Below are positions 310-63,829 of a stretch of DNA of 64,000 bases, in pieces (the first letter of the stretch is position 1; every line of letters starts with the position of its first letter). The position numbers were made by a program, and so were the translations under genes. The notes under the pieces were generated by a model. That model was given only the letters and a program-made list of their open reading frames with translations. It searched no databases and was not told where the DNA came from. Source of the stretch: Candidatus Nealsonbacteria bacterium (GTDB taxonomy: Bacteria > Patescibacteriota > Minisyncoccia > Minisyncoccales > CAZKCU01); the NCBI GenBank assembly GCA_047456305.1, contig CP179888.1:116421-180420 (forward strand), written 5' to 3'.

Positions 310-452
310 GAAGAGTACTTCATCCGTCGAGTCGAAGACAAGACGAAAGAAGAAAAACTTTTCTTCGCACTCTTCTTCACCTTCCCGAGTCGCAACGAAG
401 GGCGGAGAAGAGATTTATCTCTTCGAGTCGCTTCCTTCGGAAGCTCGGTTTT
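310..452. repeat. Copy of modular palindromic repeat family (module cttcgcttccttcggaagctcggtt plus tccgtcgagtcg...cttcttcaccttc)
   Basis: Direct sequence matches to 23620-23755 (reverse orientation), 27531-27745, 26103-26262. The ORF-track ORF 298..546 is this repeat read as protein and is not a gene. Confidence 0.7.
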
Positions 453-3384: not shown

Positions 3385-3539
3385 ATTTTCAAAATATTAT
3401 TTACTTATGTTTGACCTTGATGCATTTATTCTACCAAAAAACCGTCTCCTTGGCGAGGCGGCGACAAAAAATCGTCATTCCCGAATCTGAAATCAAAAAA
3501 AACGGCCAAGATTAAAATTAAGGGCAAATTTTGTCAAAA

Positions 3540-3892: not shown

Positions 3893-4513
3893 CTACAGTA
3901 GACCTAGTTTAGTTAAATCTTCTCTTAATTGTTCCGGACTCTGAAAATGAATTCCGTACATTCCTAACTCCTTTGCTGTTTCAATATTGACAAGTTTATC
4001 ATCTACAAAAACACAGGCTTTGGCTGGAAGATCTAGTTTCTTAAGCATAACCTCATAAATTTTGGGGTCAGGTTTCCTAAGACCTTCTTTACAAGACCAA
4101 ACAAAAACCTCAAATCCTATATCTCTAAGTCTTTTAAATCTTCCCATCTCTTTATTAGCTAAAACATGAACATCAATTATGTTTGATAAAAGAGCTAAAC
4201 GAACTCCTTTCGCTTTTAATTCGCTAAGAATTTCCCACGATTCTTTTATGTCTTTAGACCATTTCTTATAGGTCTTGGACCAAAAATCTTTGGTAAACTC
4301 TTCAGATAACTTTACCCTGGCTTCGACTTCAAATTTTCTCCAAAAGCCCTCCTCATCAATTTTACTTGCAGACCATTTTCTATAAAGAGGATCTACAGTG
4401 TTTTTTACTTTCTCTTTAGTAATTTTTAATTCGTTAGCAATTTTTGCATATATCAAAGGCCATTCATTTGTGGCTAACACTGAACCTAAATCAAAAATTA
4501 CTGCTTTAATCAT
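3893..4513 (-). CDS. HAD-superfamily hydrolase
   Basis: 206 aa. N-terminal DxD-type motif IKAVIFDLGSVL and C-terminal VFVDD motif typical of haloacid dehalogenase-like phosphatases. Confidence 0.75.
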   Translation of the reverse strand: MIKAVIFDLGSVLATNEWPLIYAKIANELKITKEKVKNTVDPLYRKWSASKIDEEGFWRKFEVEARVKLSEEFTKDFWSKTYKKWSKDIKESWEILSELKAKGVRLALLSNIIDVHVLANKEMGRFKRLRDIGFEVFVWSCKEGLRKPDPKIYEVMLKKLDLPAKACVFVDDKLVNIETAKELGMYGIHFQSPEQLREDLTKLGLL

Positions 4514-4579
4514 ATTAATTTATTTTACATAAAAACCGCCATCTTGGCGAGAAATTATTTGTAACGTTTTTAATTAGGA

Positions 4580-4655: not shown

Positions 4656-5291
4656 TTACAATATCTCTTTTTTATACTTCTCTATTTCTTTTGCTAAAAA
4701 TTTTTGGATTTCTTTTGAAGAATGTTTTTTCTCAATAAACTCTATCGTAAAATCCTTTAGGTCTCCATAATAGATAAGTTGGGACAAAAATAGTTTTTCA
4801 GAAAAAGAATCGCCGAACTTCTTTTGGGCTCCTTTAATAATGTTTTCCAGAGGAAAACCATTTTTTATTGCGAAGTAAAGATCAACGTAATCTCGCCACT
4901 CCCCTCTCCTTCCAATGGTGTGAGATTTGTCTAAAGCAATGTCTTTCCAAGAAAAAAATCTCAAATAAGGGGTGGGAATTGTTTTGTAAAGAGGAGAAAA
5001 TGGATAATAAATAAAACTTATTTTCACGCCGTGGGGGGCGGAAACAAAACTAAACTCATCCCCAGTATCTACTATGATTTCAATTCGTTCAAAATATTGT
5101 TTTACTTTGTAGAGAAATTTTTTAGAAACCAATTTGGGTAAAAATATATCCAAATCGTATGAGTATCTGTGAGAAAACTGCAGCATTAAAGCTGTTCCGC
5201 CTCCTATGCTTCCATATTTTGAAAAATTCTTTAAAATTTCAAGAACCTCTATCTGTTCTTTATTTAAAAGCTCGTAATGGAGTTTTAACAT
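4656..5291 (-). CDS. AbiEii-like nucleotidyltransferase (type IV toxin-antitoxin toxin family, DUF1814-like)
   Basis: 211 aa. Motif GSIGGGTALMLQFSHRYSYDLDIF matches the GGTAL..hR.S.D.D nucleotidyltransferase core of AbiEii/AbiGii toxins. Confidence 0.55.
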   Translation of the reverse strand: MLKLHYELLNKEQIEVLEILKNFSKYGSIGGGTALMLQFSHRYSYDLDIFLPKLVSKKFLYKVKQYFERIEIIVDTGDEFSFVSAPHGVKISFIYYPFSPLYKTIPTPYLRFFSWKDIALDKSHTIGRRGEWRDYVDLYFAIKNGFPLENIIKGAQKKFGDSFSEKLFLSQLIYYGDLKDFTIEFIEKKHSSKEIQKFLAKEIEKYKKEIL

Positions 5292-5685
5292 AATTTTCTG
5301 GAGATAATTTTTTGTTTTTGAGACCTAATATGAAATTTTTAATAAAATAAAATACTGGAGCACTATAAATCCTTTTGGGATATTTCAGAAATACTTCTTT
5401 AATTTCTTTTAGTCCATAAACTTTAAACAGCCATTTTATTTGTCTGAGATTTCCGTAACTTAAAATCTGATGGACGATATAAACTTTATCTTTTTCTAAT
5501 GTCAACTTTTTAATATTTTTGGACCATAAAATCCCCTGAAGAGAACTAAAAGTTTTCATTCTCGCCTTAGAAGATGTTTTATTCATGTACTTTAATTTTA
5601 GCACAAAAAACCTTTTATTTCCAATAAAAATTTGCCCTCTGATGGGCTTTTTATGTTTGATACGAATAAAAATAAAAAGGGACAA
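5260..5685 (-). CDS. Small protein translationally coupled upstream of the AbiEii-like gene; putative cognate antitoxin/partner (start may be the internal ATG at 5586)
   Basis: Its stop overlaps the downstream start by 32 nt. No recognisable HTH, so the partner role is inferred from context only. Confidence 0.35.
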   Translation of the reverse strand: MSLFIFIRIKHKKPIRGQIFIGNKRFFVLKLKYMNKTSSKARMKTFSSLQGILWSKNIKKLTLEKDKVYIVHQILSYGNLRQIKWLFKVYGLKEIKEVFLKYPKRIYSAPVFYFIKNFILGLKNKKLSPENYVKTPLRAFK

Positions 5686-5918: not shown

Positions 5919-6245
5919 TTAACGAATTTTAGTTCTGGGCGGAATTTCTTTATCTGGCCTCAAAAGCACGGCCTCCCCATTAACATCTGCTGCTAAAAGC
6001 ATGCCCTGGCTTTCCAATCCCATTAGAGTCTTTGGCTCCAGGTTGGCAACAACAACTATCTCTCTTCCGATTAAATCTTTTGGCTGATAAAATTCACTAA
6101 CACCAGTAATAATTTGCCTTTTCTCCTTACCTAAATCTAGCTCTAATTTCAAAAGTTTCTCAGAACCTTTTATTTTCTCAGCAGAAATTACTTTTGCTAT
6201 TCTTAAATCAATTTTTTGAAATTCCTCAAAATTAATATTTTTCAT
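5919..6245 (-). CDS. tRNA-binding protein (CsaA/Trbp111/EMAP-like OB-fold domain)
   Basis: 108 aa. KIDLRIAKVISAEKIKGSEKLLKLELDLG...GREIVVVANLEPKTLMGLESQGMLLAA is the canonical MetRS C-terminal-like tRNA-binding domain. Confidence 0.8.
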   Translation of the reverse strand: MKNINFEEFQKIDLRIAKVISAEKIKGSEKLLKLELDLGKEKRQIITGVSEFYQPKDLIGREIVVVANLEPKTLMGLESQGMLLAADVNGEAVLLRPDKEIPPRTKIR

Positions 6246-6250
6246 ATATT

Positions 6251-6300
6251 CATTCTACCAAAAAACCGCCTTTATGGCGATTTTTAATGCGGCTCGGTCC
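6251..6300 (-). promoter_or_regulatory. Conserved gene-proximal upstream motif, one of four copies (minus-strand sense: tcgccaNNNNggcggTTTTTTGGTAGAAT ... ATG)
   Basis: Copies at 3426-3458, 4526-4552, 6251-6300 and 10573-10635, each immediately 5' of a minus-strand start codon. Contains a short GC hairpin + T-run + TANAAT box. Could be promoter, upstream terminator or both. Confidence 0.4.
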
Positions 6301-6757: not shown

Positions 6758-6849
6758 AATGCGAGCGAAGTAAAAATTATCTCTAGAATTACAATTTGTA
6801 GTAAAAAAATATCCCTAGAGGTATAATCGTTCCTTACGCTATTTATAGG

Positions 6850-7030
6850 CGAAGAGGATAAAATCCTCTTCTTCATCTTCGCTTCCATAAATGGAAGCTC
6901 GATTAATGAGTAAGCCGACCACTGTTTTTATTCTCTTTCAAAGCTTACATAATTAATAGAATTGAAGAAGAGGATAAAATCCTCTTCTTCATCTTCGTCT
7001 TCATAAATGAAGACTCGATACGTAAGGAAA
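6850..7030. repeat. Two tandem ~65-bp double-hairpin palindromic elements
   Basis: Copy 1 at 6850-6912 and copy 2 at 6963-7030. Hairpin 1 is gaagaggat-aaaa-tcctcttc. Hairpin 2 is gcttccat-aaa-tggaagc in copy 1 and gtcttcat-aaa-tgaagac in copy 2, which is a compensatory change. Confidence 0.75.
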
Positions 7031-10162: not shown

Positions 10163-10564
10163 TCAGAACCTGTTTTGTTTTTTAATAAATAACACAATGC
10201 TTCCTATTGCTCCTACTAAAAACCCCATTGGACAGACAACAATTGCCAAAGTAAAAAAGAAAGACTCTTCTGCCTGAATTAAACCAGAAATGAAATTATG
10301 TAAGAGAGAACTGAGAAAAAATCCAGTAGCTGAAGCTCCGGTTAAGACTAAAAACTTCTTTAATTTTCCCCCTGTTTTTTCCTTAAGAATTAAAACTAAC
10401 AAGATTATACCTAGTAAACTAAAAAGGACTGAGGGTATCAGAAATATTTTAGAACCTCTAAATAAATCTCTAAAAACTGGAACGAAAAACTCACCCAACA
10501 AAACAAGAAAAACTCCCACTAATGTCCAGAATACTATCATTGTAGATTGTTTTATAGTTCCCAT
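10163..10564 (-). CDS. Hypothetical polytopic membrane protein (4 TM)
   Basis: 133 aa with four hydrophobic segments. Confidence 0.45.
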   Translation of the reverse strand: MGTIKQSTMIVFWTLVGVFLVLLGEFFVPVFRDLFRGSKIFLIPSVLFSLLGIILLVLILKEKTGGKLKKFLVLTGASATGFFLSSLLHNFISGLIQAEESFFFTLAIVVCPMGFLVGAIGSIVLFIKKQNRF

Positions 10565-10643
10565 AATTATTTTATTCTACCAAAAAACCGCCTGCTTGGC
10601 GATTTCTTAGGCGGCTCGGTCGCAAGAACCGAGCACTAGCCTG

Positions 10644-11953: not shown

Positions 11954-12042
11954 TTACCGAGCCCCGCCCTGCTCCGCAGAGCGGGGCGAAGGTGGAGATA
12001 AAACTTTAGTTTCATCGACTTATCGATTATTAATTATCACGA

Positions 12043-23593: not shown

Positions 23594-23619
23594 AAATCGA
23601 GTTTTTACGCAGTAAAAAC

Positions 23620-23755
23620 GAAGATGGAGATGAAAAATTTTTTTTCATCGACACCGAGCTTCCGAAGGAAGCGACTCGAAGAGATAAATCTCTTCTCTAC
23701 CCTTCGCTGCGACTCGGGTAGGTGAAAAAGAGGACGAAGTCCTCTTCGCCTACCA
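23620..23755. repeat. Palindromic repeat family copy (reverse orientation relative to 310-452) in the groES leader
   Basis: accgagcttccgaaggaagcgactcgaagagataaatctcttctc...ttcgctgcgactcgggtaggtgaa matches the reverse complement of 395-450 and of 361-390. Confidence 0.7.
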
Positions 23756-23772
23756 ATTTATTTTATTAGTGG

Positions 23773-23799
23773 TTAGCAAACACGACCTTTGAGTGCTAA
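23773..23799. promoter_or_regulatory. CIRCE-like inverted repeat (TTAGCAAAC-N9-GAGTGCTAA), candidate HrcA operator upstream of groES-groEL
   Basis: Right half-site is a perfect GAGTGCTAA. Left half is 7/9 to TTAGCACTC. Spacer is 9 nt. ~180 nt upstream of the groES start. No hrcA in window. Confidence 0.45.
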
Positions 23800-23878: not shown

Positions 23879-24343
23879 TTACTTATAGCTTTTTACTAAA
23901 AGCTTATCTTTAAAAAGCTTCCTCATTTCTTCGCTTAATTCATCAATACTTATCCCTGGACTAACAACTATTGACGGAACATCAGGATATTTTTCCAGAT
24001 GTTTTTGAGCAGCTTGAAGAGAGCTTTTTATTTGGAAATCAACTTGCTCTCCCTCTAAAGATAAAAACCAACCATCTTGATGCAAAATATAATCATGATA
24101 TCTCCATCCTGGATATTTTCCAAAACACCAAATCCATTCTTGTTTTTGCCAGAGTTCCAAAACTTGAAAAACTTTTTGAGCGCTGGCTTTGCCCTTTTTT
24201 AAACCTATTTGATAAAAAAGATATTTAATTCTCCCTGCTTTTCTTTTACTTCTCAAAAGAGATCTTTTTATGCTGTTGAATCTTTTTCTTCTACTGGGTT
24301 TCACTCTACCCATCTCCTTTCCTAGAAATATTTTATTATTCAA
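23879..24343 (-). CDS. Hypothetical protein with basic (R/K-rich) N-terminus, immediately downstream of uvrA
   Basis: 154-aa ORF, 10 nt after uvrA stop, co-oriented. No recognisable motif. Confidence 0.4.
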   Translation of the reverse strand: MNNKIFLGKEMGRVKPSRRKRFNSIKRSLLRSKRKAGRIKYLFYQIGLKKGKASAQKVFQVLELWQKQEWIWCFGKYPGWRYHDYILHQDGWFLSLEGEQVDFQIKSSLQAAQKHLEKYPDVPSIVVSPGISIDELSEEMRKLFKDKLLVKSYK

Positions 24344-24352
24344 GAACCAATT

Positions 24353-27300
24353 TTATTTTAGCATTTTCTTTAAATATTGTCCAGTATAACTTTTTTTGTT
24401 TTTGGTAATTTCAAATGGCGTTCCTTCAGTCACAATATAACCTCCCCTATCTCCTCCCTCAAGCCCTAAATCTATGACCCAATCTACGTTACGAATAATA
24501 TCGATATTGTGTTCAGACACAAGTACTGTATTTCCTTTTTCCACTAATCTTTTTAAAACCAAAACCAGTTTTTTAATATCGTAAGGATGTAAGCCAGTTG
24601 TCGGCTCATCTAAAATATAAAGAGTTCTGGCACTGGTTTTTTTAGAAAGTTCAGTAGATAGTTTTACTCTCTGGGCTTCTCCGCCAGATAAAGAAGGGGC
24701 TGGCTGACCCAATTGAACATAGCCTAAACCAACATCGTTTAAAGTTTTTAGTTTATAATATAGACCAGGAATATTTTTGAAAAATTCCAGCGCTCCCTCA
24801 ACTGTCATCTCTAAAATTTCAGCAATATTTTTCCCCTTGTATTCAATCCCTAATGTTTCCTTATCAAATCTTTTACCTTTACACTCCTGGCATTCAACGT
24901 AAACATCCGGTAAAAAATACATCTCAATCTTTATCTCTCCCTGACCCTCACAGGCCTCGCATCTTCCTCCCTTGACATTAAAACTAAAGCGACCCGGCTG
25001 ATAACCTCTGATTCTGGCTTCGCGGGTTTTAGAGAAAAGATCTCTAATATAAGAAAAGGCTCCGGTATAAGTTGCCGGGTTTGATCTCGGAGTTCTGCCA
25101 ATTGGAGATTGATCAACCAAAGCCACTTTATTTAAATTCTCAGTTCCTAAAATTTCTCGATGTTCTCCCGGCTCCTCTTTTGATTTATAAAATTTTCTCA
25201 TCAAAGCCCGGGCCAAAATGTCGTTCATCAAAGAACTTTTCCCAGAACCAGAAACGCCAGTAATACAGACAAACTTTCCTAAAGGAACCCTAACATCAAT
25301 ATCTTTCAAATTATGCTCCTTTGCCCCCTTAATCATTAAGCACTGTTGAGGCCTGGTTTCAACAGATTTTGGTTTCAATTTGATTTCTACTTTCTTTCGA
25401 CCGGCCAAATAATCTCCAGTAAGTGTATGAGCTTTAAGTAATTCTTTCGGTGTCCCCTCAAAAATAACTTTACCACCGTGTTCCCCTGCTCCAGGTCCAA
25501 TATCAATTACCCAATCAGATTTTTTAATAGTTTGTACATCATGTTCGGTTAAGACCACTGAGTTCCCCAAATCTCTAAGTTTTTTTAAAGTTTCAATCAA
25601 TCTTCCCTGGTCCCTGGCATGAAGACCAATAGATGGTTCGTCTAAAATATATAAAACTCCGGTTAATCTTGAACCAATTTGGGTAGCCAATCTTATTCTC
25701 TGTTCCTCACCCCCAGCCAAGGTTTTAGTTTTTCTATCCAAAGTCAGATAATCCAAGCCAACATCAATCAGAAATTGCAAGCGATTGATAATTTCTTTAA
25801 TAATTGGTTGGGCAATCTTGAATTCATTTTCGCTTAAGGTTTTGCGTCTCTTCCTGGTATTTTGCCGCCTCGGTTTCGCGATTTCTTCAAAAAATTCTTT
25901 TATTTTATCAATGCTCATTCCGACAATCTGATCAATCGATTTCCCTGTTATTGTTACTGCTAAGGCTTCTGGTTTTAATCTTTTCCCCTGGCACTTCTCA
26001 CATCTTCTCTCAATCATATATTTCTCAATTTCCTGACGAGCCGCTTCAGAGTCAGTTTGATAGTATCTTCTTTCCAGATTAGGAATTACTCCCTCAAAGA
26101 TCGAGCCTGCCCTCGCAGGCGAAGGTGAAGATGAAGCTTTAGCTTCATCGCCAATCGAGCTTTCGCTCGGCGAATCAAAGGACATTCTGTTCTTTTCTAC
26201 CCTTCGCTGCGCTTGGGTAAGCGAAGATGAAGAAGAAGGAATCTTCTTCGACGTGTTCGATCCATAAAGAATAATATCTAAAATTTTTTTTGATAGATTT
26301 TTAATGGGTGTATCTAATGAAAAATTACATTTTTCAGCTAAATCGGAAAGTTGCCACCAAAAATAACCCTGTCTTCCTATTTTGTGGGAAGCATGAGCCC
26401 AGGGAAAAATTGCTCCTTCTGAAAGAGATAAATTGGGATTAGGGATAACCAATGAGGGCTCAACTTCTAATTTCTCTCCCAATCCCTGACAGGCTGGGCA
26501 AGCTCCATAAGGACTATTGAAAGAAAAAAATCTTGGCTCTAATTCTGGCAGAGAAATTCCGCACTCCTCGCAGGCAAATTGTTCTGAAAAGACTTCGTCT
26601 TTTGATTTTTGACGGGCGAAGAGAACTTTGTTCTCTTCTTCCCCCTCGCTCTCCACCAAATCTTGGTGGAGAGCTCGGTTTTTAACATTTGGTATTTGAC
26701 TTACAATTAGGATGCCTTTTCCTAATTTTAAAGCCATTTCTAGAGAATCGACTAACCTTGACTTGTCTAAATCTTTATCAAGAATCAGTCTATCCACCAC
26801 CACCTCAATGTTGTGTTTTTTGTAGTGAGAAAGTTTTAATCCTGAGGCTTCCTCTATCGCCGAGCTCCGCAATGCGGAGCGAGGTGGAAGATGAGGTAAA
26901 ACCTCATCGATCCGATAAATTATTCCATCAATCCTCACCCTAACAAATCCTCCTCTCTGAATTTCTTCTAAAATCCCCCGGTGTTCTCCTTTTTTTCCTC
27001 GGATTACGGGCCCCAAAATGATAATTTCTTTCCCTTTGGGCAACTTCAAAATCTGTTCCGTAATCTGATCTATGGTCTGGCGAGTAATTAGTTTGCCACA
27101 TTTGGGACAATGAGGTTTTCCAACTCTGGCAAACAAAAGCCTAAGATAATCATAAATTTCAGTAATGGTGCCTACGGTCGAACGAGGATTATGGGCTGCT
27201 TTTCTTTGGTCAATTGAAATTGCAGGAGAAATTCCCTCGATTTTATCAACATTAGGTTTTTTCATTACCCCCAAAAATTGCCTGGCATAGGCAGATAGTG

Positions 27301-27472
27301 ATTCAACGTATCTCCTTTGGCCTTCAGCATATAAAGTATCAAAGGCTAAAGAAGACTTTCCAGAACCAGAAATACCGGTAATCACCACCATTTTATTTTT
27401 GGGAATATCAACGTTTATGTTCTTTAGATTATGCACTCTGGCGCCTCGAATTTTAATAAAATCGCCTTTCAT
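24353..27472 (-). CDS. uvrA: Excinuclease ABC subunit A (UvrA), ~90 aa longer than typical owing to in-frame repeat-derived insertions
   Basis: Two ABC ATPase modules: Walker [11 protein letters not shown] twice, signatures LSGGE, Zn-finger CxxC modules. 1039 aa. 26103-26262 encodes [47 protein letters not shown] from the repeat family. Confidence 0.95.
26103..26262. repeat. Intragenic copy of palindromic repeat family, in frame within uvrA
   Basis: tctacccttcgctgcgcttgggtaagcgaagatgaagaagaagg matches 23696-23740. Also contains palindromes gcctgccctcgcaggc and gaagctttagcttc. The uvrA reading frame is uninterrupted. Confidence 0.7.
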
Positions 27473-27530: not shown

Positions 27531-27745
27531 TGGCAAAGAGAACTTTGTTCTCTTCTTCACCTTCGCTTCCTTCGGAAGCTCGGTTGGCAAAGAGAACTTC
27601 GTCCGTCGAGTCGCTACGAGACGAAAGAAGAAATACTTTTCTTCGTACTCTTCTTCACCTTCGCTTAGCGAGATTTTGCGAAGCAAAAGCGAAGATGGAA
27701 AAGAGGCTTGCCTCTTTGACCCATAAATGAAAGCTCGGTTAATGA
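27531..27745. repeat. Composite palindromic-repeat copy between uvrA and capA; overlaps annotated capA start
   Basis: Contains cttcgcttccttcggaagctcggtt, tccgtcgagtcgctacgagacgaaagaagaaatacttttcttcgtactcttcttcaccttcgct, aaagaggcttgcctctttgac and cataaatgaaagctcggttaatg, which match modules at 310-452, 6880-6905 and 63281-63331. Confidence 0.7.
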
Positions 27746-28797
27746 AAAAGATTTTTCCTTGGTTAATTTTAATTAGCTTTATCATTGCCTTAGGTTTATT
27801 TCTTTTAATTGAAATCTATCGATTTCCGAAATCAATAGATTATTCCGAACCGAGAGTAGATGAATTGATTGAGGAAAAAACAATCACTCTAATTTTGGTT
27901 GGCGATATAATGCTTGACCGTGGAGTGGAATATATGGTTGAAAAACAAGGAGGTGGAGATTTCAGGTTCCCATTCTTGAAAATCAGCGATGAACTAAAAG
28001 GAGCAAATCTCCTTTTTGGAAATTTGGAAGGGGTAATTTCTGATAAAGGAATTAAGGTCGGCAGTATTTATTCTTTTAGAGCCGATCCAAAAGCAATTGA
28101 AGGATTAAAATTTGCCGGCTTTAATCTTTTATCTTTGTCTAATAATCACGCCTTTGACTACGCAAGAGAAGCCTTAGAAGATTGCCTATTTAAGCTAAGC
28201 AAAGGAGGAATTGGTTATGTTGGAGCTGGTTTTACAGAAAAAGAGGCTTATTCTCCTTTTGTCAAAGACTACAACCCGCCCACCACATCCTCCCATTCCT
28301 CGCTTCACTCGGAACAGGCCCCTATCGAGGGTACTAAAATTGCTTTTTTGGCTTATACTAATTTAGGACCTGAAGCCTGGAAAGCTGGCGAGAAAAATTC
28401 TGGGATTGCTTGGATTTCAGAAAAAGATTTTGAAAAAATTAAAAAAGATATTGAAAATGCTAAATCTCAAGCTGATATTTTAATTGTTTCTTTACATGCC
28501 GGAGAGGAATATCAAAAAACGCCTACTCAATTTCAAATTGAATTTTCTAAAATGGCAATTGAGGCTGGAGCAGATTTAATAGTTGGCCATCACTCTCACG
28601 TAATTCAACCGAATGAAAAATATGGGAATGGCTATATTTTTTACAGTTTAGGAAATTTCATTTTTGACCAAGGCTTTTCCGAAGAGACAATGAGAGGACA
28701 AATTATTGAAGTTTTGATAGAAAACAAACAAATAAAAGAAGTTATTACAAAAGAAATTAAAATAAACAATTTTTTCCAACCAGAGATTTTAGAGTAA
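27727..28797 (+). CDS. capA: CapA/PgsA-like metallophosphatase-fold protein (poly-gamma-glutamate/capsule biosynthesis family), membrane-anchored
   Basis: LILVGDIMLDRG, FGNLEG, LSNNHAFDY, HAGEEY, GADLIVGHHSHVIQP motifs. First ATG lies inside a repeat, so the second ATG (MKKIF) may be the true start. Confidence 0.8.
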   Translation: MKARLMKKIFPWLILISFIIALGLFLLIEIYRFPKSIDYSEPRVDELIEEKTITLILVGDIMLDRGVEYMVEKQGGGDFRFPFLKISDELKGANLLFGNLEGVISDKGIKVGSIYSFRADPKAIEGLKFAGFNLLSLSNNHAFDYAREALEDCLFKLSKGGIGYVGAGFTEKEAYSPFVKDYNPPTTSSHSSLHSEQAPIEGTKIAFLAYTNLGPEAWKAGEKNSGIAWISEKDFEKIKKDIENAKSQADILIVSLHAGEEYQKTPTQFQIEFSKMAIEAGADLIVGHHSHVIQPNEKYGNGYIFYSLGNFIFDQGFSEETMRGQIIEVLIENKQIKEVITKEIKINNFFQPEILE

Positions 28798-29555: not shown

Positions 29556-30983
29556 ATGGAGAAATTCAAGTTTTTACCAAAGGATAAAATTTCTCAGCTT
29601 CCCAAAGTTCCTGGAGTCTATGCATTTAAAAAAGGTGCTAAGCTCCTTTATATTGGCAAGGCGGCGAATCTCAAGGAAAGAATAAAACAACATGAAGATT
29701 TGCTTAGCTTAACTAAACAAATCGGCTATATTAAAACCAATTCGGAAATTGAGGCTTTGATTTTGGAGGCAAATTTAATAAAGAAATATAAACCAAAGTA
29801 TAATGTAACGTGGCGAGATGATAAAAATTATTTCTTTGTCGGAATCACCAAAGAGGACTTCCCCCAAGTTTTTATCACCCACCAACCCACCAAAATTTTT
29901 GCTTCGCAAAAACTTAGGCGGGCGAGCCAAAAATTAAAAAGTAATTATATTGGTCCTTTTGTAGACGGTACTGCCTTAAAAGCAACTTTAAAAATTTTGA
30001 GAAAGATTTTCCCTTACCGAACTTGTAAAAATCTGCTAAAAAAACCTTGCCCTCCCAAATTTTTAGATCAATCAGTAAAACCAACTAAACTTACAGAACC
30101 CCAAAAACTTGGGAGGGCTTGTCTCTGGTATCAACTTGGCAGATGCCCCGCCCCTTGTTTGTTAAAGTCTAAGTTGGGAGAACAAATTCCCGGTCTGGAA
30201 ACTAAAATAAAGAAAGAGTGTCAAAAAAATATAAAAAATATAATGAAAATTTTACAAGGAAAGAAAATTCGAGTGCTAATTGATTTAAAAAGGGAAATGA
30301 AAAAAGCCTCTTTAATCCAAGATTTTGAAAAGGCAGCAAAAATTAGAGATAAAATAAGGGCTTTAGAAAAAGTTTTGGCTCATGCTAAAATTTTTGAGCT
30401 CCAACTTTCTCAAGCGGTAAACTGGAACCAAATTCAAAAAACTTTACAAAAAATTTTAAAAACAGAAGATAGAATTTCTCGCATTGAGGCCTATGATATT
30501 TCAAATATCCAGGGCCAGGAAGCTACCGGTTCCATGATTACTTTTATAAAAGGCCTACCTGATAAAAAATTCTATCGAAAATTTAAGATTAAAACAGTTG
30601 GAAAACCAAATGACGTGGCTATGCTCAAAGAAATATTGCATAGGAGAATTAACCATCCTGAATGGGGCTGGCCAGATTTAATTTTAATTGATGGAGGAAA
30701 AGCCCAACTAAATGCGGCTCTTCAATGTTTAAAGTATAAGTTTAAAGAAATGAGAGTTATGGCTTTAGCTAAAAAGAAAAATGAATTATTTATTAAAGGA
30801 AGAAAAGAGCCGATTTTGCTCAAAAAATTGCCGAGGGCGAAGAAAATAGATTTTCTTCTTGATCCTTCGCTAACGCTCGGGAGAGAAATTTTCAATTTAA
30901 TCTTGCAGCTTCGTGATGAAGCTCACCGATTTGCCATTTCTTACCATAAAAAATTAAGAAAAAAGAAATTAATAGAAGGTTGA
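29556..30983 (+). CDS. uvrC: Excinuclease ABC subunit C (UvrC), apparently lacking the C-terminal (HhH)2 domain
   Basis: N-terminal GIY-YIG (GVYAFKKGAKLLYIGKAANLKERIKQH). UVR motif (LIQDFEKAAKIRDKIRALEK). RNase H-like endonuclease region (AYDISNIQGQEATGSMITF). 475 aa versus ~600 aa typical. Confidence 0.75.
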   Translation: MEKFKFLPKDKISQLPKVPGVYAFKKGAKLLYIGKAANLKERIKQHEDLLSLTKQIGYIKTNSEIEALILEANLIKKYKPKYNVTWRDDKNYFFVGITKEDFPQVFITHQPTKIFASQKLRRASQKLKSNYIGPFVDGTALKATLKILRKIFPYRTCKNLLKKPCPPKFLDQSVKPTKLTEPQKLGRACLWYQLGRCPAPCLLKSKLGEQIPGLETKIKKECQKNIKNIMKILQGKKIRVLIDLKREMKKASLIQDFEKAAKIRDKIRALEKVLAHAKIFELQLSQAVNWNQIQKTLQKILKTEDRISRIEAYDISNIQGQEATGSMITFIKGLPDKKFYRKFKIKTVGKPNDVAMLKEILHRRINHPEWGWPDLILIDGGKAQLNAALQCLKYKFKEMRVMALAKKKNELFIKGRKEPILLKKLPRAKKIDFLLDPSLTLGREIFNLILQLRDEAHRFAISYHKKLRKKKLIEG

Positions 30984-33744: not shown

Positions 33745-33829
33745 GCCGAAGTGGCGAAATTTGGTAAACGCGACGGCCCCAGGAGCCGTTGGGCGAAAGC
33801 CCTTGTGGGTTCAAATCCCACCTTCGGCA
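33745..33829 (+). tRNA. tRNA-Leu (anticodon CAG read from loop CCCAGGA; C at position 33 is unusual)
   Basis: GCCGAAG acceptor. Long variable arm TGGGCGAAAGCCCT. T-arm GTGGG-TTCAAAT-CCCAC. 85 nt. The ORF-track ORF 33751..35532 spuriously starts inside this tRNA. Confidence 0.7.
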
Positions 33830-33831
33830 CT

Positions 33832-35532
33832 ATGAAAAAATCTCAAAAAAATCTCAGGATTATCCCTCTTGGTGGATTAGGCGAGGTTGGCCGTAATATG
33901 ATGCTCCTTGAATGGCAAGAACGCCACCCTTCCTCAAGAGGGTCCCCTATTTTAATTATTGATATGGGTCTTGGTTTCCCGGGAGAAAATATGCCAGGTA
34001 TTGACTGTATTATTCCAAATATTTCCTATCTTAGAGGAAAAGAAAAGAACATCTTGGGAGCGGTTCTGACTCACGGCCATTACGACCATATTGGTGCTAT
34101 CCCCTATATTATCCCCCGACTTGGGTTAATACCAATGTACGCTTCTCAATTAACTAAGGGGATTATCTTAAAAAGACGGGAAGATTTTCCTAATCAACCA
34201 AAACTTAACATAGAAAACATAAAAGATGGCTCTAAAATTCAATTGGGACCCTTCCAAGTAGAATTTTTCAAACAGAATCATAATATCCCTGATAACCTTG
34301 GATTATTTATTAAGACCCCTCTCGGAAATATTGTCCATACTTCTGATTTTAAATTTGATGAATCTCCGGTCAATGAAAGCCCTACTGATTTTGAGAAATT
34401 AAAAAACATTGGCAAAAGAGGGATTTTGCTTTTGATGTCTGAATCAACCGGAGCTGAAGAAGAAGGTCATTCTCTTTCAGAAAAAACAATTTTTGAAAAT
34501 TTAGACAAGATTTTTAAAAAAGCAGAGGGAAGAATTATTGCTGCCTCCTTTGCTTCCCTGATTAACAGAATTCAACAATTAATTATCCTTTCAGAAAAAT
34601 ATGGAAGAAAGGTAACAATTGAAGGACATAGCATGAAAATTAATGTTGAGATTGCTCAAACTTTAAAAAAGATTGAAGCTAAAAAGGGAACTTTTATAAG
34701 AACAAAAGATATTGGCAAATTTCCTGACTCAAAAATAACAGTTATCTGCACTGGTGCTCAGGGAGAAGAAGAGGCAGTTTTTATGAGAATTGCCAATCGA
34801 GAACATAAATTTATCCGGCTCAAGAAAGAAGATACAATTATTTTTTCTTCTTCGGTCATCCCTGGAAATGAAAGAAGTATTCAGTTCTTAAAAGACCAAT
34901 TTCACCGTCAAGGAGCTAAGGTTTTCCACTACAAAATGATGGATATTCATGCTTCCGGCCATGCCAGAGAAGAAGAGTTAAAAGAAATGCTCAGAATTAT
35001 GAAGCCAAAATTCTTTCTGCCTATTTATGGCCAATACTCAATGCTTGTCAGGCACGCCCAGTTAGCTGAAGAAGTAGGTTTATTAAAACAAAACATAATG
35101 GTGGCTGAAAATGGAGAGGTTATAAACCTAAGCTCAAAAAGAATTTTCATTGAAAAGAAAAGAGTTCCCTCAAATTATGTAATGGTTGATGGCTTGGGAA
35201 TTGGCGATGTAGGAGAAGTAGTCTTGCGAGACCGCCAAACCTTGGCAAAAGATGGGATGTTTGTGATTGTGGCCGTTGTGGATAGACAGGCTGGTAGAGT
35301 CAAGGGTTCTCCTGATATAATATCAAGAGGATTTGTTTATCTTAAAGAATCAAAGGAATTACTCAAAGAAACGAGAAAAAAGGTAACAGATATTGTCAAT
35401 AGAGCAGCAGGTTCTGGTGGAGCGGTTAATTGGAGCTATGTCAAAAATGAAATAAGAAACAAAATCGGCCAATTTCTTTTTTCCAAAACTCAGAGAAGGC
35501 CAATGATTTTACCTGTGGTCATAGAAGTGTAA
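33832..35532 (+). CDS. rnj: Ribonuclease J (beta-CASP metallo-beta-lactamase RNase)
   Basis: Start reassigned to ATG at 33832 (MKKSQKNLRIIPLGG). HxHxDH motif THGHYDHIG. Beta-CASP motifs. C-terminal domain. Confidence 0.85.
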   Translation: MKKSQKNLRIIPLGGLGEVGRNMMLLEWQERHPSSRGSPILIIDMGLGFPGENMPGIDCIIPNISYLRGKEKNILGAVLTHGHYDHIGAIPYIIPRLGLIPMYASQLTKGIILKRREDFPNQPKLNIENIKDGSKIQLGPFQVEFFKQNHNIPDNLGLFIKTPLGNIVHTSDFKFDESPVNESPTDFEKLKNIGKRGILLLMSESTGAEEEGHSLSEKTIFENLDKIFKKAEGRIIAASFASLINRIQQLIILSEKYGRKVTIEGHSMKINVEIAQTLKKIEAKKGTFIRTKDIGKFPDSKITVICTGAQGEEEAVFMRIANREHKFIRLKKEDTIIFSSSVIPGNERSIQFLKDQFHRQGAKVFHYKMMDIHASGHAREEELKEMLRIMKPKFFLPIYGQYSMLVRHAQLAEEVGLLKQNIMVAENGEVINLSSKRIFIEKKRVPSNYVMVDGLGIGDVGEVVLRDRQTLAKDGMFVIVAVVDRQAGRVKGSPDIISRGFVYLKESKELLKETRKKVTDIVNRAAGSGGAVNWSYVKNEIRNKIGQFLFSKTQRRPMILPVVIEV

Positions 35533-37997: not shown

Positions 37998-38074
37998 AAT
38001 GCTTTATTATATCATAAATATCATAAATATGTTGTGACCTCCAAAATTTCGCCAGAAATTTTGGAGTAGTATAT

Positions 38075-50730: not shown

Positions 50731-60382
<9,652 letters not shown>

Positions 60383-61714: not shown

Positions 61715-63829
61715 TCAAAGAGAATAAATCCTCTTTTCCACCCTTCGCCTACGGCTCGGGTAGCAGATTAACTTTAGGAATTCTTTCTCTTCAATTGTTT
61801 TTACTCCCAGGTTTTTCGCTTTTTCAAATTTTGAGCCGGGTTCTTTGCCAACAACAAGGAAATCGGTTTTTTTTGAAACTGACTCAGAAATTTCCCCGCC
61901 CAAAAGCCGGATTTCTTCTTTTGACTCTTCTCTGCCCATTGTTTCCAAACTACCTGTAAGCACAAATACTTTCCCTTTTAACTTTAAATCTTTAGTTTTA
62001 ATCTTTGGATTTTCTATTCTTATTCCAACTTTTTTTAGTTTTTCCAAAAATTCCAAATTACTTTTTTGGGAAAACCAATCATAAATACTTTTAGCCACTA
62101 CTGGGCCAATATCCATAACTTTTTCAAGATCTCTGAGGTTTGCCTTTTTTAATTTTTCTACAGAACCAAAATAGTCTGCCAAATCCATACTAGTTTCTTC
62201 TCCAACATTTCTAATTCCTAAAGCATAGATAAATTTTGACAATTGAATTTTTTTTCGAGACTGAATCGCCTCGATTAAATTTTTAACCGATTTTTCAGCA
62301 AACCTTTCAAGAGGTAATAAATCTCCTTCCTCAAGCACAAATAAATCGGATGGGTCAGAGACTAATCCTTCATCAATCATTCTGTCAACAATTTTAGGAC
62401 CAAGGCCTGAAATATCAAAAGCTCCTTTTGAAATAAAATGACGAAAATATTCTCTCAGCTGAGCTGAACATTTTGGATTTGGGCAACGCCAAACAACTTC
62501 TCCACTGGGTTTGATAATTTTTACTCCACAGGCCGGGCATTTTTTTGGCATTCTGAAAACCTTTTCTTTTCCGGTTCTTAGTTCTGGTAAAACTTTGATA
62601 ATATCAGGGATAACATCCCCTGCCCTGCCGACAATAACCGTATCACCAATTTTTACTCCTAATTTTTTTATTTCTTCTTCGTTATGAAGAGTGGCTCTTG
62701 AAATTGTGACTCCGCCAACCTCCGCAGGTTTCAAAATTGCTACCGGGGTTAAAGCTCCGGTTCTGCCTACCTGAACAATAATATCTTTAATAATGGTGGT
62801 GGCTTGTTTTAAAGGAAATTTATAAGCTATAGCTCCCCGGGGAGCCTTTCCCACAATCCCCAATTTCTCAAAAATTTTATTTGGATTAATAATAACCACA
62901 ATCCCATCAATTTCATAGGAGAGCTTTTCTCTTAATTTTTGGCTCGCTTTATGAAAATTAAAAACTTCTTTCAGATTCTTGCAATATTTATTATGGGGAT
63001 TAGTTTTAAAACCTAAGGCTTTTAAAATCTGGTGTTTTTCTTGATGAGTTTTTTGACCAAGGTCAGTAACTAAATCATAGATAATCGAATCGAGGCGGCG
63101 AGAAGCTGTTACTTTTGGGTCAAGCTGCCTGATAGACCCTGCTGCCACATTCCTTGGATTAGCATAAGGAGAAAGATTCTTTTTTATTTGTTCTTTATTT
63201 AATCTCTCGAATTCTTTTTTTGAGATAAAAACCTCTCCCCTCACGACAAGCCTTGAAGGAATTTCTAATTTTAAACAGTCAAAGAGGACTTTGCCCTCTT
63301 TGACACCTTCGCTTCCAAAGGAAGCTCGGTTTCTAATTTCTAATTTAAGTGGTATAGCTTCAATTGTTTTTAAATTTTGAGTAACATCTTCGCCAATTAT
63401 CCCATCGCCTCTGGTCGAACCGGTTTTAAAAATCCCCTGCTCATAAATCAGCTCAATAGCTAAACCATCAATTTTAAGCTCGCAGAAAAAATCTATCTCT
63501 GATTTTTCTTCAGTTGTTAACAGTTTTGAAATTCTCTCCAGCCAATCTTTCATATCATCTTCTGAAAAAGCATCATTAAAAGAAAACATCGGTTTAGGGT
63601 GTCTAATTTTCTCAAATTTTTCTAAGGGTTTGCCTCCTACTCTTTGGCTGGGAGAATCAGGAGTAAGAAGCACGGGAAATAATTTTTCTAAATCAAAAAG
63701 TTCTTTTTTCAAAGAATCAAGAGCAGCTTCAGAAATCTCTTGACGATCATGAACATGATATAAATAACGGTGATGGTTAATCACCTTTTTTAATTTTTCA
63801 ATCCTTTTTTTAGCTTCTTGTTTAATCAT
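61715..63829 (-). CDS. ligA: NAD-dependent DNA ligase LigA, carrying an in-frame repeat insertion (about 63258-63346)
   Basis: Adenylation motif KIDGLAI (KxDG). Zn finger CPACGVKIIKPSGEVVWRCPNPKC. HhH and BRCT regions. Insertion ...IPLKLEI[RNRASFGSEGVKEGKVLFDCLKLEI]PSRL flanked by duplicated AAATTAGAAATT. Confidence 0.9.
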   Translation of the reverse strand: MIKQEAKKRIEKLKKVINHHRYLYHVHDRQEISEAALDSLKKELFDLEKLFPVLLTPDSPSQRVGGKPLEKFEKIRHPKPMFSFNDAFSEDDMKDWLERISKLLTTEEKSEIDFFCELKIDGLAIELIYEQGIFKTGSTRGDGIIGEDVTQNLKTIEAIPLKLEIRNRASFGSEGVKEGKVLFDCLKLEIPSRLVVRGEVFISKKEFERLNKEQIKKNLSPYANPRNVAAGSIRQLDPKVTASRRLDSIIYDLVTDLGQKTHQEKHQILKALGFKTNPHNKYCKNLKEVFNFHKASQKLREKLSYEIDGIVVIINPNKIFEKLGIVGKAPRGAIAYKFPLKQATTIIKDIIVQVGRTGALTPVAILKPAEVGGVTISRATLHNEEEIKKLGVKIGDTVIVGRAGDVIPDIIKVLPELRTGKEKVFRMPKKCPACGVKIIKPSGEVVWRCPNPKCSAQLREYFRHFISKGAFDISGLGPKIVDRMIDEGLVSDPSDLFVLEEGDLLPLERFAEKSVKNLIEAIQSRKKIQLSKFIYALGIRNVGEETSMDLADYFGSVEKLKKANLRDLEKVMDIGPVVAKSIYDWFSQKSNLEFLEKLKKVGIRIENPKIKTKDLKLKGKVFVLTGSLETMGREESKEEIRLLGGEISESVSKKTDFLVVGKEPGSKFEKAKNLGVKTIEEKEFLKLICYPSRRRRVEKRIYSL
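63258..63346. mobile_element. MITE-like palindromic repeat inserted in frame in ligA with 12-bp target-site duplication (AAATTAGAAATT on coding strand)
   Basis: Insert aaagaggactttgccctctttgac + cttcgcttccaaaggaagctcggtt matches modules at 27700-27720 and 27555-27594. Flanked by the direct repeat ttctaatttt / ttctaatttctaattt on the plus strand. 75 bp total, so the frame is preserved. Confidence 0.65.

Follow-up and report, generated by a model that had tools for sequence, protein, structure and literature searches.

In-frame insertions in uvrA of a Candidatus Nealsonbacteria bacterium belong to a dispersed family of short, probably mobile two-hairpin repeats

[quoted passage not shown] Here we report a family of shorter repeats in a Candidatus Nealsonbacteria bacterium, four units of which lie in frame within the DNA-repair gene uvrA. 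The analysis covers a 64,000-nucleotide stretch of contig CP179888.1 (positions 116,421 to 180,420 of the forward strand), which we call the window; coordinates below count from its first letter, and WIN denotes the genome of this window. The organism belongs to the Patescibacteria, or Candidate Phyla Radiation (CPR), whose genomes are tiny and thought to be poor in mobile DNA.

Other described repeats provide further points of comparison. IS200/IS605-derived elements and the repetitive extragenic palindromic (REP) and bacterial interspersed mosaic element (BIME) repeats, which are mobilised by Y1 HUH enzymes, have subterminal hairpins, lack terminal inverted repeats and target-site duplications, recognise a target on one side only, appear and disappear seamlessly and form arrays in alternating orientation. 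REPs are extragenic by definition. [quoted passage not shown] Classical MITEs, including Correia, ERIC, RUP, the Coxiella QMITE and those of Anabaena, are small, non-autonomous and high-copy and are occasionally found in frame (PMC10969869; PMC2759123; PMC5896051). Palindromic amphipathic repeat coding elements (PARCELs) are coding repeats that have dyad symmetry and are mobile both within and between genomes (PMC2996958). Full-text searches of the literature yielded RPEs, MITEs, REPs and PARCELs, none of them tied to Patescibacteria, CPR or Nealsonbacteria.

We consider it very likely that a short, non-autonomous mobile repeat with hairpins has invaded uvrA of this genome, leaving four units at three sites. 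The gene (24353–27472, minus strand) is an intact open reading frame (ORF) of 1039 amino acids, as a preliminary description of the sequence had stated, and encodes a complete class I UvrA. The protein aligns by phmmer to the solved structures 9gxk, 2r6f, 3pih and 3zqj over residues 1–1038 in two or three stretches (E = 0) and matches the Pfam families UvrA_inter and UvrA_DNA-bind; these searches account for both ATPase modules, the zinc modules, and the UvrB-binding and insertion domains. It is 100% identical to one Candidatus Nealsonbacteria UvrA at NCBI. Structure alignment places residues beyond those of the solved UvrAs at approximately 191–211, 261–290, 410–457 and 531–543. The peptides and small palindromes quoted in the preliminary description are present where it placed them, but its figure of ~25 residues for other UvrAs between ILYGS and the next motif was too high: the structures have ~16 and the closest relatives only 3.

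Comparison with syntenic contigs of close relatives establishes that the extra segments are insertions. The relatives and negative controls include 23 loci from a scan of species-representative genome contigs, and the uvrA DNA of L001, L007, L002 and L004 is 95.6%, 95.7%, 91.4% and 90.1% identical, respectively, to that of WIN. Insert 3 (26858–26911, minus strand) is one 54-nt unit in sense orientation to uvrA; it corresponds to an exact 54-nt gap in all four of these relatives and among these loci is filled only in WIN. Insert 2 (26615–26680, plus strand) is one 66-nt unit, antisense to uvrA and read as 22 amino acids, which is found in WIN and L001 and not in L002. Insert 1 (26099–26260, minus strand) is a composite, sense to uvrA, of unit 1a (26205–26252), a spacer with an extra hairpin (26153–26204) and unit 1b (26099–26152); WIN has 162 nt at this position, where L002, L004 and L007 have 9 nt. 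Three genomes that are ~96% identical differ at all of the uvrA insertion sites, and filled and empty alleles were also seen at five loci besides uvrA. The filled and empty sites, together with the length variation among 119 homologues described below, thus identify the segments as lineage-specific insertions rather than ancestral loops. The segments are absent from unrelated UvrAs, and the nearest relatives L001, L002, L004 and L007, at 91–96% DNA identity, have empty sites, so they are not conserved across unrelated lineages, which was the check that the preliminary description had proposed.

Two further kinds of segment occur in these genes. At or beside the insert 2 site, unrelated inserts occur in L004 and L007: that of L004 (approximately L004:10780–10830) is a palindromic one-off with a 14-bp stem, and that of L007 belongs to a hairpin-free type that recurs below. 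A fourth extra segment of the WIN UvrA (25838–25880, minus strand), seen as an indel in the alignment of relatives with 33 nt absent in L002, was rejected as a family member; it has no covariance model match and no fold (z = +0.4).

The uvrA units and the intergenic copies are one family. Within the window, blastn aligns 26120–26246 to 23619–23747 (71% identity over 131 nt, E = 2.5e-10) and 26615–26667 to 27532–27584 (79% over 53 nt, E = 3e-9). A covariance model was seeded with eight units, all outside uvrA, and its test on the uvrA units is therefore independent; MAFFT seed alignments that included the uvrA units had hairpin 2 misaligned and were dropped. Run on the window with filters off, the model recovers insert 2 at 55.4 bits (E = 1.5e-15), unit 1b at 50.2 bits (E = 6.9e-14), insert 3 at 35.0 bits (E = 5.3e-9) and unit 1a at 30.1 bits (E = 2e-7), among a total of ~17 units (8 plus-strand, 9 minus-strand). 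The empty sites and the independent model thus bear out the earlier proposal that uvrA carries several in-frame inserts of one palindromic family, the two smaller extra segments (inserts 2 and 3) included.

Controls support this assignment. With an architecture scanner, 10 full units are detected in the window, where 0.03 are expected in shuffles, and none in ~330 kb of DNA from other bacteria and the remoter Patescibacteria. Similarity to the intergenic copies accordingly holds under a shuffled-sequence control as well as in the independent model. One piece of the original evidence fared less well: of a proposed 45-nt match between insert 1 and 23696–23740, a 16-nt exact seed stands, but the remainder diverges and the ungapped identity (28/45) is equalled by shuffles, so that the significance of the likeness comes from the gapped and architectural match. 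At E <= 0.001, the covariance model gives no match in L002 (22.8 kb) or in the distant loci L010–L027 (~325 kb), and the family was not found with it in Wildermuthbacteria, other Parcubacteria, WWE3 or Dojkabacteria loci. In 125 kb of viral contigs, 15 matches to the DNA pattern accompany a single weak 23-bit model match; the DNA pattern alone is therefore not specific, and these contigs give no sign of phage carriage. Rfam 15 reports three tRNAs in the window, and the repeats themselves give one chance-level miRNA match and no family at the gathering score.

Each unit reads 5'-GKCGAWGA, hairpin 1, TTCAYCTTCG, hairpin 2, CTCGGTW-3'. The modal lengths are 54 and 57 nt, with greater lengths where hairpin 2 is long (the uvrA units span roughly 54–66 nt), and units may stand alone, lie within one another, follow each other in tandem or make up mixed arrays. 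Nesting is seen within insert 3 in L009, L029 and L031. We assessed pairing in two independent samples, namely 66 model matches in 228 kb of Nealsonbacteria-clade DNA and 92 model matches in metagenome contigs chosen by DNA pattern alone. Stem cells are paired in 95.9% and 94.0% of cases, and double-sided stem changes were counted 221 and 232 times, where shuffles give 75 and 65 (0/500), with slid controls far lower; these figures are somewhat inflated because the alignments were fitted to the model. G–U pairs make up 2–3% of stem cells in both samples. All four uvrA units fold into two DNA hairpins (z = −2.9 to −8.4; −5.8 for insert 3 and −8.4 for insert 2). In insert 2, hairpin 2 (26648–26674) has a 3-nt loop that is inverted between WIN (GAT) and L001 (ATC), the mark of template switching at a hairpin or cruciform. 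The scarcity of G–U pairs and the inverted loop point to pairing of DNA rather than RNA.

The termini of the units are conserved and are not inverted repeats of one another: the 5' GKCGAWGA is unrelated to WACCGAG, the reverse complement of the 3' end. Target-site duplication is equally absent, both from junctions in general (the best 8-mer direct repeat scores 6.0 against 5.85 in controls) and from eight filled/empty pairs. A target is nonetheless evident in the 3' flank, where WWTGA appears with T at 65%, G at 52% or A at 39%, and A at 85% at positions +3 to +5. This motif is already present in the empty sites examined, and units insert directly 5' of it.

The family is dense in some Nealsonbacteria lineages (~1 unit per 3.5 kb) and missing from others; it is present in WIN, L001, L009 and L029. 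Units are frequent in genes. In uvrA-centred loci, 32 of 61 lie in long open frames, as do 34 of 91 in the pattern-selected metagenome contigs, a few of the latter really being start-adjacent copies in the 5' untranslated region (UTR). Host genes in the metagenome contigs encode TsaD, a class I (Leu-type) tRNA synthetase, NusA, MurB (two sites), MetRS, a radical-SAM/UPF0004 (MiaB-type) protein, IF-2, a Mur ligase and PBP2. The preliminary description had suspected a genome-wide process, which is borne out by the roughly one-third of units in pattern-selected contigs that sit in genes of many kinds; this same variety makes the link with DNA-repair genes coincidental.

Units inside genes stand in sense (31) or antisense (35) orientation and use five or more of the six reading frames, and the predicted peptides are rich in Ser/Pro, Glu/Gly or Lys/Arg or, less often, hydrophobic. 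Unit length is a multiple of three for 46 of 57 intragenic units but for only 37 of 69 intergenic ones (p = 0.002), which speaks for translation of the inserts rather than their removal. In the comparison of WIN with L001, the non-synonymous to synonymous ratio is 6:3 in inserted codons and 39:70 elsewhere in uvrA, which suggests relaxed constraint on the inserted codons (p = 0.08). For the earlier suggestion that the inserts could modulate protein surfaces, there is no evidence of a useful effect.

Within UvrA, the inserts occupy positions that vary in length among relatives. Insert 3 falls within the UvrB-binding domain and insert 2 where that domain meets signature domain I, whereas insert 1 separates ILYG from FEGV in the insertion (DNA-binding) domain. 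Among 119 homologues that are at least 69% identical, UvrA ranges from 926 to 1104 amino acids around a 908-column core, with ~19 length-variable blocks, and the inserts overlap these blocks.

The closest analogue of this family is the Rickettsia palindromic element. Like RPEs, the units occur both in intergenic DNA and in frame in unrelated housekeeping genes, add peptides while the protein is kept, and have proliferated in particular lineages with no known transposase (PMC1779305; PMC10969869). RPEs are 100–150 bp long, belong to the Rickettsiales and fall into families RPE-1 to RPE-10, whereas the units here are 54–66 nt long, consist of two variable hairpins around a conserved 10-nt linker, form arrays, use a WWTGA target and come from an unrelated phylum, the CPR/Patescibacteria, so that no relationship in sequence is expected. 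The present type is different and apparently undescribed in CPR. MITEs are matched in size, non-autonomy, copy number and in-frame read-through, but the units have neither terminal inverted repeats nor target duplication. PARCELs are 25-residue tandem domains in dedicated ORFs of unknown function, often those of membrane proteins, unlike the single inserts dispersed here among housekeeping enzymes and intergenic DNA. With subterminal hairpins, no terminal inverted repeats or target duplication and a short one-sided target, the feature set more closely resembles IS200/IS605-derived or REP-type elements than classical MITEs. It differs from REPs in the absence of a GTAG/CGTC tag, the termini being GKCGAWGA and CTCGGTW, and in that roughly one-third to one-half of its units lie inside genes.

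By analogy with these systems, we propose that the units move as single-stranded or hairpin DNA through a site-specific cut-and-join enzyme acting in trans. Such mobility would resemble that of IS200/IS605-type or REP-type elements, which also excise seamlessly, and permissive sites bearing the motif would therefore be filled or vacated repeatedly across lineages. The inserts would be transcribed and would emerge in the protein as low-complexity loops between elements of secondary structure; in the manner of RPEs, they are probably selfish DNA that is tolerated rather than useful.

Several observations weigh against this account. Pfam reveals no transposase or nuclease among the window ORFs, and neither TnpA nor RAYT is among them; an IS608 TnpA probe found no match by tblastn in 1.4 Mb, though this is a weak test. 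Classical IS200/IS605 elements are expected to show strand bias within a single replichore, whereas the units here show none (8 plus, 9 minus, a small sample) in a window of uniformly negative GC skew. Copies also differ greatly in hairpin sequence, an unusual trait if the transposase binds hairpins in a sequence-specific manner. As for the location of the inserts in the protein, an AlphaFold2 model made from 85 close homologues has a predicted local distance difference test score (pLDDT) below 50 at residues 197–212, 262–289, 407–457 and 536–544, each between predicted secondary-structure elements, but the model is poor (mean pLDDT 62, predicted template modelling score 0.34) and is low in other conserved regions too, so that solvent exposure of the inserts is not demonstrated. 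The coincidence of low pLDDT and variable length is consistent with permissive loops, short of proving exposure. Gains and losses can likewise be counted only roughly: insert 3 is present in 17 of the 119 UvrAs with at least 14 changes and unit 1b in 11 with at least 7, on a neighbour-joining tree that is star-like. Lastly, unit 1b is 94–100% identical between lineages whose uvrA flanks are only 68–77% identical, and its exact hairpin pair was found, among the loci compared, only at this uvrA site, which leaves room for allele transfer or selection.

This last observation supports a reading in which recurrences at the same site reflect one or a few old insertions that were spread or erased by homologous recombination, or held by selection on the insert. 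L009 and L032 share raised flank identity, in agreement with transfer, and the modular variants of site 1 in relatives (SKK + 1a, SKK + 1b, SKK + 1a + 1b, and four tandem copies of 1b) look as if a single ancestral composite had been rearranged. In WIN, however, the DNA flanking insert 3 contains no imported tract, with identity to L001 normal up to the junction, and recombination is inefficient at 70% identity. The family as a whole is moreover dispersed to many loci, and recombination or selection would therefore account for the recurrence rather than the origin of the inserts. We regard this reading as possible, if somewhat unlikely; for unit 1b itself, the data fit recurrent insertion, allele transfer or selection alike.

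We find it improbable that the units are instead selected functional structures, for example 5'-UTR or mRNA hairpins that serve translation or stability. Strong covariation agrees with such a role, as does position: 24 of 152 units stop exactly 1 nt short of a long ORF's ATG, in sense orientation, against a background of ~6% for a 24-nt window. In these start-adjacent units, exemplified in the window by groES, rpoD and PGA_cap, hairpin 2 has its G-rich 3' arm (consensus GGAAG) 8–9 nt upstream of the ATG. This placement is explained, though, by the WWTGA target. The near absence of G–U pairs points to pairing of DNA, units stand in both orientations within genes, no Rfam family matches, L002 manages without any unit in 22.8 kb, and presence varies among genomes that are ~96% identical.

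Still less probable, in our estimation, is a local origin of the inserts by template switching, slippage or tandem duplication, with no movement of an element. Events of this kind do occur in the clade, as seen in the four tandem copies of the 54-nt unit 1b in L032, the loop inversion between WIN and L001, and unrelated one-off palindromic inserts such as that at the L004 insert 2 site and one at 38022–38072. The latter is a one-off hairpin with a 12-bp stem (CTCCAAAATTTC GCCA GAAATTTTGGAG) in the PGM–ychF spacer, absent in L002. Local events would cover amplification and perfect stems but not a dispersed family, in which more than 150 units at unrelated loci have non-palindromic termini and a linker in common.

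The proposal that the extra UvrA segments are ancestral Nealsonbacteria loops with a merely compositional likeness to the repeats is highly improbable. The same peptide does occur at the same position in UvrAs only 72–78% identical, and insert 3 units diverge about as the gene does (78–94%). Against these stand the exact empty sites in genomes 95.6–96.4% identical, independent model E values of 1e-7 to 1e-15, a highly scattered distribution on the tree, and the same units in many unrelated genes and in intergenic DNA. Ancestral loops would survive only if every empty site were a seamless deletion, which itself implies a mobile element. It is barely conceivable that the inserts are tiny intron- or intein-like elements removed before the protein works, or metagenome assembly artefacts, given that intragenic units are stop-free and enriched for multiples of three (excision would need neither), that 18–22 amino acids are far too few for an intein, and that the same inserts appear in independent NCBI, JGI and ENA assemblies.

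The remaining members of the family lie on both sides of uvrA. An intergenic array of about three units (23595–23760, minus strand; model matches 23595–23652, 23653–23697 and 23707–23750) lies between a CIRCE-like operator and the groES start codon and is absent in L002 and L004; it is the copy with which the preliminary description compared insert 1. The operator itself, a CIRCE-like heat-shock element (TTAGCACTC-N9-GTTTGCTAA, 23773–23799, minus strand), lies upstream of groES, and the array between it and the start codon replaces the native 5' UTR of relatives. The spacer between uvrA and groES contains a different gene in every relative: the window has an unannotated 154-residue ORF (23879–24343), and L029 has a 402-residue ORF (L029:13267–14475) with faint helix-turn-helix and LAGLIDADG matches.

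On the other side, an intergenic array in both orientations (27532–27740; model matches 27532–27585 on the plus strand and 27666–27720 on the minus) separates uvrA from the divergent PGA_cap gene (27742–28797, plus strand). It amounts to 208 nt that are absent in L001 and L002 and stops 1 nt before the PGA_cap start codon. The PGA_cap ORF was called too far upstream, into the array (MKARL + MKKIF..., 27727–27741), and the P0034 UvrA similarly has a false N-terminal extension of ~80 residues composed of repeat units. PGA_cap also contains a 54-nt insert at 28269–28326, read as DYNPPTTSSHSSLHSEQAP and absent in L001, L002 and L004, which we rejected as a family member; it has no model match and no hairpin fold. 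Similar peptides (NPPTT..., NYIPPHHPP...) occur in the UvrAs of P0016, P0022, P0034 and L007, in the last at the insert 2 site, and mark a second, hairpin-free type of insert.

A further intragenic unit (63278–63331, plus strand; 63 bits, a model seed) is antisense to ligA (61715–63829, minus strand), where it is read as NRASFGSEGVKEGKVLFD in the adenylation domain identified by Pfam. Compared with E. coli LigA (2owo), the protein has ~23 extra residues between positions 165 and 189, in agreement with the preliminary description, which had named ligA as a second host. A probable unit lies near the C-terminus of uvrC (30836–30882, plus strand, in a gene at 29556–30983, plus strand; 25.7 bits, E = 5e-6). 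The intergenic unit at 11955–12019 (minus strand; 43 bits) stops 1 nt before the rpoD start codon and has a clean empty site in L004. Two intergenic units at 6848–6904 and 6964–7020 (plus strand; 82 and 77 bits) are model seeds that the scanner also detects, and blastn and the model place another at 404–450 (plus strand), inside a longer mosaic array (~300–460).

The window has further features of note. A dispersed motif distinct from the two-hairpin family, TTCTACCAAAAAACCGCC-loop-GGCGA, occurs just beyond gene ends at 3417–3456, 4511–4550, 6241–6299 and 10563–10621 and resembles a shared terminator-type hairpin. A 2337-residue ORF (53264–60277, minus strand) contains repeats at 53242–53647, 55670–55837 and 55880–56647, of which one is a 9-nt tandem repeat (~45 copies, encoding Gly-Asp-Thr triplets like those of collagen), another is 21 nt long and a further one, of 156 nt, occurs four times; it probably encodes a repetitive surface protein. 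At 4656–5685, an ORF for an AbiEii-type nucleotidyltransferase toxin and an overlapping upstream DUF6922 ORF are probably a toxin–antitoxin pair. The called start of the RNase J ORF (33751–35532) overlaps a tRNA gene (33745–33829).

We offer one broader reading tentatively and think it unlikely. It takes the family as an undescribed class of CPR hairpin element that inserts and excises seamlessly at a specific target and is mobilised as single-stranded DNA by an enzyme in trans. Such an element would be "coding-neutral", with modal lengths of 54 and 57 nt and open in five of six frames, and would hence colonise essential genes of genomes that rank among the smallest and most streamlined known. 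The WATGA form of its target includes start codons, so that the last ~55 nt of many 5' UTRs would be rewritten, with GGAAG in the hairpin 8–9 nt upstream of the ATG; the element may then affect translation initiation as well as protein loops. If this is true, gain and loss at the same sites among ~96% identical genomes would be among the fastest-evolving features of these genomes.

In a clade with so little expected mobile DNA, a repeat occurs at ~1 per 3.5 kb in some lineages and inside genes for essential proteins, including UvrA, LigA, tRNA synthetases, NusA, IF-2 and Mur enzymes. It would provide a second, independent natural system, besides Rickettsia, in which to study the in-frame spread of selfish DNA and the tolerance or recruitment of new loops by proteins. 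Much of the variation in length among the clade's conserved proteins, as in UvrA, is explained by the repeat, which also causes annotation errors in which start codons are extended into repeats, and degrades structure prediction. Because ~96% identical genomes differ at every site in one gene, the elements are also sensitive strain markers. Their defined termini and target offer a concrete handle for finding the mobilising enzyme.

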